Below, piece after piece: positions 3,794-44,703 of a stretch of 64,000 nt of DNA; the stretch's first letter is position 1; every line of letters begins with the position of its first letter. Made by a program: the position numbers and the translations under genes. The stretch comes from Eledone cirrhosa (lineage: Eukaryota). The notes under the pieces were generated by a model that saw only the letters and a list, made by a program, of their open reading frames with translations, was not told the DNA's origin and did no database searches. Where the stretch lies: assembly GCA_964016885.1 (NCBI GenBank), contig OZ024744.1, forward strand, positions 109,306,001-109,370,000, written 5' to 3'.

Positions 3794-3911
3794 GTTTACA
3801 ATTGTTTCGCTACTCCATATAATACTTGTGGATCAGATGACTATATATCATTATTGATCTGTTCAGTTGAAAATAATTAATATATTTATAAACAGAGCGG
3901 CTCATCGGAAC
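3794..3911 (-). ncRNA. Type I hammerhead ribozyme motif with expanded stem II
   Basis: Minus strand: gtt-CCGATGA-gc..(about 95 nt)..gc-GAAAC AATT GTA-aac. Confidence 0.6.
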
Positions 3912-6516
3912 TTCAAAGGAATATAAATTAAAATAAGGAGAGAATGTTACATAATGTAGTGTTCCATATATTGGTGTTTCACTATGGTGTCCTGGTTGTA
4001 TCAGTTGTCAGCCATAATCAAGCAGTATTTATCTGCCGAGGCTGCATTGTGTGAGATCTGCCTATGGGTAACAAGATGGCCACCAAAGGACATATTTACC
4101 TTACTAATTAGAGGGTGGTTTCAGGGGAAGTAACTCCTCAAGAGATTAGAAGTTGTGGGTAGTTTATAGTTATGTGCTAATTTTAAAATATTTAAATTGA
4201 GAGAGAATGTAGGCGAGGTAACTTATAATTATCTAAGTTAGTTATAGCTATTTAACTTATTAGCTACAAGTGAAAATGGGGCTAGATGACTATGTTGGGT
4301 CAAATATTCTATTGGCGAAGGAATTAGCCCTTCGATGTTGACAGCTAATAGTTACCTCCGTTCTATCGTTAATCGGTAGAGGTCGTGATAGAGTTATGTA
4401 ATATGCTTCAGTAATACAGAGATCACAAGATTTTCTTCGTCCATTGAACGGTTGGCCCCTAGCTAAGATATCCCATGTTAGTGAGTGTTTAATGTTGGTT
4501 AATTTAAGGTTTTTAATGAGCCTAGCTAGAGATGTCGAACATCTGTTGTTAGGGTCTCGGAAGGAAGAAGAGTGTGCGTTATAGCGTACCTTAAAAGGGT
4601 TAGAGGTAGACCCGATATAAGAGCTGGTATTCGAAACAGTTTTAACCGTGCATCTATAGACTATGTTGGGTGTCAGGCAGTGTCCATTTAATGGGCATGC
4701 ATTGGGGTAACGGCAGTTGCAGTTGCTTCTGCGGTTAGTGAGAGTAGGGTAGTTTAACCTAAGCGGTTGGTCAGTGCTAGAAGGATTAGATGGGGGAGGT
4801 GTGATACTAGAGTAATTATTGGTGTAGTGGCGTGGTGTATTTGATAGGGGTGGTGGTACCGCGGTGTGGGAGTTATACTGTCTTAGTTTATGATGGTTAC
4901 TGAATGCGATGTGGCTAGCTAGGTTAGGTGTAGTGGAGAATGAGATTTTAATGTTATTTTTATTAAAGAGTTTGTAATATCTATGGTTGAGGGGGGGTGT
5001 TTAGATAGGATAGAGAAGAAACGTTTAGGGATATTAGTGGCTAGATTAGATGAGAATGGGGGGTTAAGCCAGGTGATATTTCTAGGTCTATTCCTTCTAG
5101 GGGTTCTAGTGGAGTTGGTAGGGGCCTTCCTAGGGTTATTATTACCTGGGGATTTGTTATTTGTCATCCCATTTCTCATTCCTATTCTAGGGTTGATTTT
5201 TAGTTTGCTACTTGGAGTGGGGAGCAGGCCGCTGCCACCATTGAAGTTCCCTGTATAGGTGCTGTTACTGCTAAAATTCCGGCGAATCTGGCTATAAGCT
5301 AAGGTATTTCTAGTTCTAGTGTTAAGTTTATTATGGTGAGTTGCTGTGTTATGGCATTTAGGTATGTAATAAATTGATTGTTTATAACCAGATTCAGAGA
5401 GAGCCTTATTATAATATTATGCGGGGTTTATAAATATCTCTTCATTTGCTGCATGGAGATCCTATATGAGATAGATTTGATTACTGCTCTGATGACTGCC
5501 GGTGGGTGGTTAGAGTGTGGGCTAATATATGTGAGTATTTCACCTGGTTTATGGTAAGGGTAATATAGGTTATTGTTGAGATCCAGGTGACGTCTAGGAA
5601 GTTTACTACTTTATGGTTCGGCTCGATGGTGATAGAGAGACCGTTATTTTAAAAGAATCTATGTATTTGTTTTTTTAGCAAATCAATGCCCCGATTAGTG
5701 CAATTGGGGACTGCAAATAGGGCGTCGTCCCTGTATATTCCGCCTTGCAAGGGTTGGATTTCGGCTCTGATGTTATGTAATAGGTAAATTCCAACTAAAT
5801 CTGTGATTTGCGCAGAGTCACTTGAGCCCATCGTGATGTCAAAGTTGTCTGTTCTATCTTTTCTAGTCCAGAGTGCTCCGTTGAATTCAATGATGGTCTG
5901 CCTAGCCATAAGTATGATGTTAATCTCATTATTGGTTATGTCCGAGTTGGTGGTGGCAAGGGTTAATGCTTTGTTGAGCAGTTCCGGGGTTATTGAAGCG
6001 TAATATATATATATGTTTTTTTTTCGTTCAATGGCCATACTCGATAACGAGGGGGCAGCCATCATATATATATATATATATATATATATATATATATTCA
6101 TATATATATATATAGTACCTTACTTACTGTGGTTACCTCCGATTCAACCCGGAATAACTTATATATATATAATATATATATATATATATATATATATATA
6201 TATATATATATATATATATATATATATATATATATATATATATATATATATATATATCAACAAGAGGTTTACGTAGGTGGCGAGTTTATGATTTCATTTG
6301 TATTCCTATGTAAGTTTATCTTGGAGTAATAAAATTGAAAAAGTGAAGAATAACATGGTCAACAGTACAAAAAAAAAGGGATTTATTTACAGTCTGACAA
6401 TTGTTTCACTGATTAAGTTGTCTAAAAATTGCTGAACACTGAAAATTGCTGATCATCGGAGATAACTAGAATAGCCGTTAAATTTACAAATTCAAATTAC
6501 AGCATCATTAATAATA

Positions 6517-7039
6517 CTAGCAGAAAAACCACCCTTTCCGTGGTTTTCTGCTAGCATGTGTAGTGTGTATATTGATATTGTCCGCAAGTATATATACATG
6601 TAGATATGACACATCAAATAAAATCGTAATTGACAATATAAACAGAAATTGAACGAAGACGTTGTTACACTGTCTTATGTAATCAGTAACGTAATCCATG
6701 ACATTAAAAAAAGACAATATTATATATAAACTGCATTAGGAGAAAATTAGTGACAGAAAATTAGTGACAGAAGTGTTGACACTACACACTCTCTCTTTCT
6801 GTATATATGGTAGTTGAAGTGGTGGTGGTGGCAACGATATACCGGAAGTGCAACTTTGAAAAGAAGTCAATTTTAAATTATTTATTTTTACAAAATTATT
6901 TTTATTTACGAAATTTAGTAGATAAATTATGTAATATTCATTCATTATTTAGTCAAAGTAATCCAACTTATTTTACTAACGGGATAAAAAAAAATAAACC
7001 GTACGCAGTCCCGCAGACCTTCCTTTATTATAGTTTAGA
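6517..7039 (-). mobile_element. Non-autonomous Helitron (523 bp)
   Basis: Minus strand begins TC(TAAACTATAAT) and ends with a hairpin plus CTAG. Comparison with the uninterrupted pLTR copy (about 10370-10395) shows insertion between A and T with no TSD. Second copy at 60928-61735. Confidence 0.85.
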
Positions 7040-44094: not shown

Positions 44095-44416
44095 GAAACA
44101 AAATGGCGTAGGACAGAACAAAGGAGAGGCACAAAAACAAAGAAAAGAATCCCCAGTCACTGAAGAGGTCACAGAATGTGTGACGAAAGAACTTTGACAA
44201 TATATAAACAACTATCTGGTTGTGGAACCAACCAACCAACCAACCAACAAGAAATTTATAAATTCCTAAATTTATAAATTTATTATAATAAATTGAAGTG
44301 AAAGCAACTGGTGCGTGTGTTTCTTATTGGCAACATGACCCTCCCAAAGCATAACAATATCGGTTTCAACACACGTTTTCAGATAAAGAATCTTGTTAAA
44401 CAAATTCAGAAACGAA
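44095..44416 (+). mobile_element. Copy of the 29.1-29.4 kb PLE 3' end with an HHR at 44156-44198
   Basis: gtca-CTGAAGA-g gtcac..gtgac-GAAAGAACTT-tgac; reverse complement of 29068-29375. Confidence 0.8.
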
Positions 44417-44592
44417 ATATATATATATATATATATATATATATAATAAGTTGACAGACCCAGAATATTTATCAATGTCAGGACCAGTTGTATCTCAGCG
44501 TACTCAATAGGTAATGTAGGATACATTCCCAGAGAATACACATAGTTATTCACTTCAATACAACACATGTAAAACGGGTGCCTATAGTAGCT

Positions 44593-44703
44593 CCCGGACT
44601 CGAGTTTCGGCCACACTTAATACAGCAGTAGGGTGCACTGCACCTTCTGTCTGCATATATTATGCAACAATGCATAATCGGCGTATGTGGCTTCATCAAC
44701 GGG
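44593..44703 (-). ncRNA. Type I HHR with expanded stem II (unit A)
   Basis: cccg-TTGATGA-agccaca..(about 70 nt)..tgtggc-CGAAAC TCGA GTC-cggg. Confidence 0.7.

Follow-up and report, generated by a model that had tools for sequence, protein, structure and literature searches.

Expanded stem II domains in predicted type I hammerheads of Hydra-clade Penelope-like elements and non-coding tandem units of Eledone cirrhosa

The minimal hammerheads of Penelope-like elements (PLEs) lie in the pLTR and combine a short stem I and a dimer-type stem III with a helix II of at most 6–8 bp (Cervera and de la Pena, 2014, PMC4209133), and the min-HHR descriptor in its supplement allows a stem II of 3–7 bp with a loop of 3–10 nt. 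The same dimensions are given for the Hydra-clade PLE motifs by Craig et al. (2021, PMC8557442); these are of type I, occupy a 3′ position, have a palindromic stem III and frequently begin stem II with a mismatch, and their parent elements are marked by RWK and DKT, a CxCX5C linker, CxxC and CxH, no CCHH, and (TA)n targets.

The features of both systems recur in the window analyzed here, the whole 64,000-nt stretch of Eledone cirrhosa DNA. It contains five hammerhead families, named F1–F5 in window order, that differ from the published motifs in having a stem II domain of 59–93 nt (counted from the nucleotide after the 5′ core half up to the GAAA, basal helix included) and, in F1 and F2, a C at core position 4. 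All five therefore fall outside the min-HHR limits and are missed by that descriptor, as the sequence-only reading had anticipated; one arm of the motif, stem II, is two to four times what the published search pattern allows.

The F1 hammerhead (3794–3911, minus strand) has its 5′ core half, CCGAUGA, at 3908–3902, a 93-nt stem II domain at 3901–3809, GAAA from 3808, a palindromic stem III and a predicted cut after 3797. F2 (10423–10526, plus strand; core 10426–10432, stem II domain 10433–10511, 79 nt, predicted cut after 10523) belongs to a Hydra-type PLE insertion, in whose inverted 5′ arm it lies, and a copy in the 3′ pLTR (6393–6462, minus strand) is without 34 nt of the insert, leaving a 45-nt domain. 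F3 (24434–24521, minus strand) has a U3-A8 core at 24517–24511, a 59-nt domain at 24510–24452, a 10-nt palindromic stem III and a predicted cut after 24438. F4, first delimited as 32068–32177, extends over 32064–32180 on the plus strand (core 32068–32074, 90-nt domain 32075–32164, predicted cut after 32176), and its second copy (31594–31710, minus strand) occupies the inverted arm of an insertion at 31553–32337 with (TA)n on either side. F5 (44593–44703, minus strand) has its core at 44699–44693, an 84-nt domain at 44692–44609 with a predicted three-way junction, and a predicted cut after 44597; a second copy at 28402–28501 (plus strand) retains C3 and the full stem II domain, with stem III, the cut site and the 3′ side of stem I deleted.

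In each of the five the 5′ core half reads YYGANRA and is accompanied by GAAA, a stem III that is palindromic, a UH site and a stem I of 3–5 bp, which in F4 amounts to one perfect pair alone or four pairs if a bulge is allowed. With the conserved core in order, three helices and a UH site, they are, as read from the sequence, type I hammerheads of predicted cleavage. Both core halves are present at all five sites, as are the pairs proposed for the base of stem II (gc/gc, ggca/tgcc, gtgac/gttac and gccaca/tgtggc), among which the 9-bp basal stem of F2 had not been listed. The proposed insert spacing of 70–110 nt was too long, the core-to-core distances being 93, 79, 59, 90, and 84 nt from F1 to F5 with the basal helix counted.

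A descriptor for long stems matched the window four to five times, where 30 local dinucleotide shuffles averaged 0.03–0.10 matches (maximum 1), a control in which a perfect palindrome was required and the descriptor was composed after the motifs were known. Rfam returned no hammerhead match in the window and none in ten of ten short-stem control loci; because the short-stem controls are missed too, these scans do not discriminate. The U3-A8 core of F3 and the U.U mismatch at the foot of the 9-bp basal stem of F2 are variants already in print (PMC4209133, PMC8557442), and the base of stem II has a non-canonical A.A mismatch in F4 and a bulge in F5. C4 and U4 alternate among sister copies of the C4 families, and no published account of C4 in a hammerhead core was found in the literature covered. 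The window copy of F5 has U3 with G8 and the majority of its family has C3, which points to C3-to-U decay in the window copy. In computed folds the stem III palindromes have 0.0 kcal/mol as lone hairpins and −6.4 to −12.9 kcal/mol as duplexes, in keeping with dimer-type PLE hammerheads (PMC4209133).

The window holds further hammerheads. A sixth long-stem motif, absent from the sequence-only reading, is found at 58967–59052 (plus strand; stem II domain 58979–59035, 57 nt), and short-stem motifs of other families, with a stem II of about 12–26 nt, are found at 44160 (plus strand) and at 29316, 41157, 40622, 17567, 37287, and 32513 (all minus strand), the last two flanking a GC-rich PLE-like element. 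Two non-LTR retrotransposon ORFs, which we take to be RTE-like, are located at 143–2350 (minus strand, with a Pfam RVT_1 match) and 52594–54936 (plus strand). Tandem arrays are formed by five copies of a 110-nt unit (12019–12575), by a unit of about 308 nt (16437–17763) and by (TTGG)n (61771–62810), and a SINE-like repeat of about 190 nt, which often interrupts other elements, occurs at 3596–3786, 9745–9941, 14866–15123, 21843–21998, 38871–38966, 61023–61379, and 62923–63576. A 253-nt inverted repeat at 59943–60472 has a tRNA-Ser(CGA)-like sequence in each arm and is possibly a two-armed SINE-like insertion.

The F1, F2, and F4 hammerheads are located 3′ of Hydra-clade Penelope-like ORFs. The parent of F1 (4290–6020, minus strand) is a 5′-truncated and frameshifted Hydra-type PLE encoding RT, thumb and, at the C-terminus, a GIY-YIG-type endonuclease, whose ORF ends about 380 nt ahead of the hammerhead core, and that of F2 is a decayed Hydra-type body with RWK and DKT motifs (7575–10100, minus strand; endonuclease 7575–8039). 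The hammerhead lies downstream of the endonuclease by about 400 nt in F1, 500 nt in F4 and 800 nt in F2, and this distance is fixed in 16/19, 4/5, and 4/7 endonuclease copies, respectively. Translations of the three parents carry the C-terminal endonuclease, CxCX5C linker, CxxC and CxH of the Hydra clade and no CCHH; in the window copy of F2 the linker has another residue in place of its first cysteine, which the sister F6 retains. RWK and DKT were both seen in F2 and F8 and DKT in F4, and the N-terminus of F1 was not recovered. Placement in the Hydra clade is by these protein motifs, the trees having been built from endonuclease domains of unnamed loci. An origin from Naiad, in which the half-cores are 35–50 nt apart according to Craig et al. 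(2021, PMC8557442), was rejected because the endonuclease of F1, F2, and F4 is C-terminal. The description of the five families as unrelated has to be given up, since the parent endonucleases of F1, F2, and F4 are 31–49% identical pairwise and those of F2 and F4 group strongly.

F3 and F5 are carried differently. The F3 element (24358–25045, minus strand) consists of a non-coding unit of about 591 nt and a partial repeat, and the F5 piece (44446–44875, minus strand) is 5′-truncated from a non-coding unit of about 839 nt; both are flanked by (TA)n tracts. Monomers to trimers were seen, with one hammerhead per unit and longest stop-free frames of 84 and 117 codons, and F3 and F5 are likely retrozyme-like non-coding tandem units. 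They likely borrow the enzymes of Hydra-clade PLEs. No autonomous partner of either was identified, and an endonuclease at 45042–45491 was rejected as the F5 parent, being separated from it by a (TA)n tract and absent from other F5 copies. Contigs from four unclassified sequencing runs compared with F3 yielded related variants only. In general the insertions sit in (TA)n and are often two-armed, head to head, with partial tandems, an inverted 5′-truncated arm and fixed 3′ ends.

The window comes from a 3.0-Gb assembly with abundant (TA)n tracts and remains of retroelements. A genome search gave 1307, 2067, 546, 994, and 2326 first-look candidates for F1 to F5, figures that are not copy numbers, 40 being scored and 30 loci fetched per family. 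Among the copies listed from the 30 loci fetched per family the insert is conserved together with the core, and de-duplicated copies of the five families comprise 184 with both halves (core intact in 174), three with the 5′ half alone and 14 with the 3′ half alone, a count that is biased upward because the loci were chosen for full-length similarity. Since the inserts are conserved and the halves co-occur in 184 copies, the sequence-only reading survives on the two points it had named as able to undo it. In 580 kb sampled irrespective of the families, stem II matches numbered nine at ≤30 nt, eight at 31–44 nt, 13 at 45–110 nt and six above 110 nt (36 in total), against 0–2 per length bin in five shuffles.

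Stem II of the families in this genome ranges from 13 to 97 nt, with groups near 11–26, 36–38, 49–61, and 79–97 nt, a range from which descriptor matches above 110 nt, an internal duplication at L181 and two clusters of A-rich or tandem-repeat sequence were excluded as false. Short-stem Hydra families are present in the same genome and are dominant elsewhere: related PLEs were represented by 78 loci in metagenomes, of which 40 gave a match; stem II measured 10–29 nt in 38 of these, some being near-duplicates, and the remaining two scored low and did not lie 3′ of the ORF. In endonuclease trees, which may contain long-branch joins, the F2, F6, F4, and F8 parents group (SH-aLRT 99), F1 is on a long branch, and a family with a 54-nt stem is sister to one with a 13-nt stem (the latter read by eye); the best tree splits the long-stem families, and a single clade is not rejected by the AU test (p 0.16). 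This spread of length within one genome, the short stems of outside relatives and the sister pair of long and short stems all argue for the explanation that we hold to be, by a little, the probable one, namely that the long stem II is a self-folding spacer joining the core halves and not a separate RT-binding domain. The link to PLEs, the Hydra protein motifs and a stem III that is stable as a duplex alone agree with it.

Several relatives were encountered in the same searches. At L164 (5785–5880, minus strand) a Hydra-type element carries a U3-A8 hammerhead in which stem II measures 54 nt and the palindromic stem III, 19 nt long, could fold as a monomer. An abundant Hydra-type family at L448 and L469 has a hammerhead-like motif about 1000 nt past the endonuclease which, read by eye, shows A at core position 4, a 13-nt stem II and a duplicated stretch of about 130 nt ahead of it. 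Stem II domains of 95–97 nt at L197 (8140) and L349 (1059) have predicted three-way junctions like that of F5, with pairing preserved, and there seems to be a further diverged relative of this type near the end of L469.

Against a mere spacer stands the clustering of about ten families at 79–97 nt, their inserts mostly unalignable, which looks like a constraint on size, and long stems are kept by both non-coding families. These observations favor instead an insert that is a functional domain in its own right, binding the RT/endonuclease protein or a host factor, gating ribozyme folding and evolving fast in each family, the non-coding families being reliant on cis signals; we regard this as rather improbable. 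Insert deletions bear on the same question and were seen in the 3′ pLTR copy of F2 in the window (6393–6462), at L357 and at L368. The arms of a young insertion at L368 (1500–1640 and 2410–2470) are unlike each other: one has the full 92-nt stem II, whereas a deletion across a short repeat has taken 66 nt from the other, where a clean hairpin of 26 nt is left. This loss, found in one of 40 scored matches, shows that the insert can be lost, yet the insert-less copy did not spread; the argument is weak because the copy is truncated and not a source.

Folding of the inserts was compared with that of shuffled sequences, giving z values for the stem II domain of −0.3, −2.4, −3.7, −1.9, and −4.7 for F1 to F5. 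By predicted folding energy the insert is structured clearly in F3 and F5, moderately in F2 and F4, and not in F1, where 66 of 200 shuffles fold equally well and there is no folding signal. Predicted shapes include rods and three-way junctions. No shared sequence was found among the F1–F5 inserts, F4 and F5 being the sole pair to reach z 3.7, and the lack of a motif common to the families speaks for a spacer and against a protein-binding domain.

Two sister subfamilies of F2 were found in the genome, and RNAalifold applied to 26 selected copies of the group (of 102 collected) returned the same stem II structure as that drawn by hand. Both sides are changed in 4/9 basal and 3/13 inner pairs, and one side in seven inner pairs, each change representing about one event because the rows are related. 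Across five sister pairs, with events counted once, 53 of 63 inner pairs are kept where 44.8 are expected (P 0.002), and there are seven double changes where 2.8 are expected (P 0.011); the signal is carried by two of the five pairs, the other three not being significant singly. Selection on insert structure in sister subfamilies is therefore supported. Pairing kept between sisters is what a self-folding spacer would need, and compensatory changes deep in the insert also suit a functional domain; that just two pairs are significant singly and that F1 is without a folding signal count against the spacer. Together with the length cluster and deletions that do not spread, the deep covariation keeps a protein-binding or regulatory domain in play. 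In a test for A-to-I editing, A>G changes in inserts numbered 84/6602 and T>C changes 54/7446, subfamily variants being counted more than once, with the reverse direction in three of seven families.

A different role would fall to the internal loop or junction that is predicted after 4–9 basal pairs in F2, F3, and F5. This loop, whose 5′ strand shows good conservation from one F2 subfamily to another, could replace loop 2 and dock on stem I or flanking RNA to speed cleavage, with the distal hairpins positioning it, and loop–loop contacts drive fast hammerheads (PMC3088659). Such docking seems unlikely: basal helix length varies by family, stems I are short, no covarying partner was noticed in the families, and the F8 insert is a nearly continuous rod.

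The ends of the elements bear on the suggestion that the insert serves in recognition by RT. Element 3′ ends lie about +19 to +245 nt past the predicted cut and none falls in stem II: in F3 they are at +80 and +241–250 (56 of 58 arms), and elsewhere, with microsatellite matches ignored, at +44 and +159 (F8), +19 and +117 (F1), +58 (F4), +67 (F2), and +157 (F5). By analogy, these fixed ends resemble the two internal RT start sites of the anole element PAc, whose RNA stays active when cut back to +20 of an ORF that begins at stem II, with RT starting farther 3′ (PMC11167929). Both the ends downstream of the ribozyme and the PAc truncation, an analogy from another clade, favor a spacer over a functional domain, and recognition of the insert by RT finds no direct support in these ends or in the 38 of 40 outside relatives that are without one. 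The same source describes a PAc hammerhead that cleaves with protein present only (PMC11167929), which would fit an insert acting as a protein-dependent domain. On that tentative and rather doubtful account, stem II of Hydra-clade PLEs and their non-coding parasites in this animal lineage would have become a folded domain of 50–97 nt that binds the element's protein or a host factor and gates self-cleavage; if true, the genome would hold thousands of copies of a naturally allosteric hammerhead that published descriptors fail to see.

Arms that run through several motifs still intact are common and reach 1833 nt in F3, and a sharp 5′-end peak at the cut site (+1) is absent among F3 arms. These observations and the weakly folded F1 insert might indicate that the ribozymes survive as inactive relics, with inserts that arose as fold-back accidents of reverse transcription and persist neutrally. 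We consider this very unlikely, as families whose proteins are 31–59% identical have maintained the core, the palindrome and both stem I and stem II, compensatory changes included, and the 5′ ends of F3 arms are enriched in the first 80 nt past the predicted cut (17 vs. 8.5 expected, P 0.0016), a zone picked post hoc in which RT stalling at structure would look alike.

If stem II is a self-folding spacer, as we are inclined to think, two motifs on one tandem transcript would pair via their palindromic stems III and would cut slowly or partly, as in other PLE hammerheads. RT would have two fixed internal start sites beyond the motif and would often pass through motifs left uncut. Stem II could have grown stepwise because no evident loop 1–loop 2 contact fixes its length, and what selection would chiefly maintain is an insert able to fold back on itself and thereby close the basal helix. 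The sister families with long and short stems, the insert deletion and the young F3, F4, and F8 offer ready test constructs for the role of PLE hammerheads.

The idea of an expanded-stem-II class is borne out in so far as long stems are recurrent and conserved; the spread of 13–97 nt, the mixture of rods and three-way junctions and the missing common sequence speak against a class. Animal hammerhead counts depend on descriptors whose upper limit for stem II is about 25 nt, and in genomes of this kind a large share may be missed. No published description of animal PLE hammerheads with stem II domains of 80–97 nt was found in the mostly open-access literature covered.

The discontinuous Clec2 hammerhead of mammals has its insertion in the stem I loop. 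It has in common with the present motifs a core split by a long insertion, which in Clec2 is several hundred nt long and lies in an mRNA 3′ UTR, unlike here (PMC6765202). Animal non-LTR retrozymes share with F3 and F5 a tandem organization of non-coding units, every unit having a single type I hammerhead (PMC7229834; bioRxiv 10.64898/2026.07.22.740005); retrozyme units are 150–450 bp, whereas those of F3 and F5 are 591 and 839 nt, with a long stem II and PLE-like two-armed insertions. The direct precedent for the stem II size of F3 is PLE-X1_sMoe of Selaginella, flagged as non-canonical in File S2 of PMC8557442, whose stem II of 9 bp bears a loop of 35 nt, making about 54 nt in total; it is one plant family of another clade, whereas here many animal families reach 79–97 nt and show insert covariation. 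There is no new ribozyme class on present evidence, and the hammerheads are best read as a recurrent, lineage-enriched structural extension of the known ribozyme–retroelement pairing.
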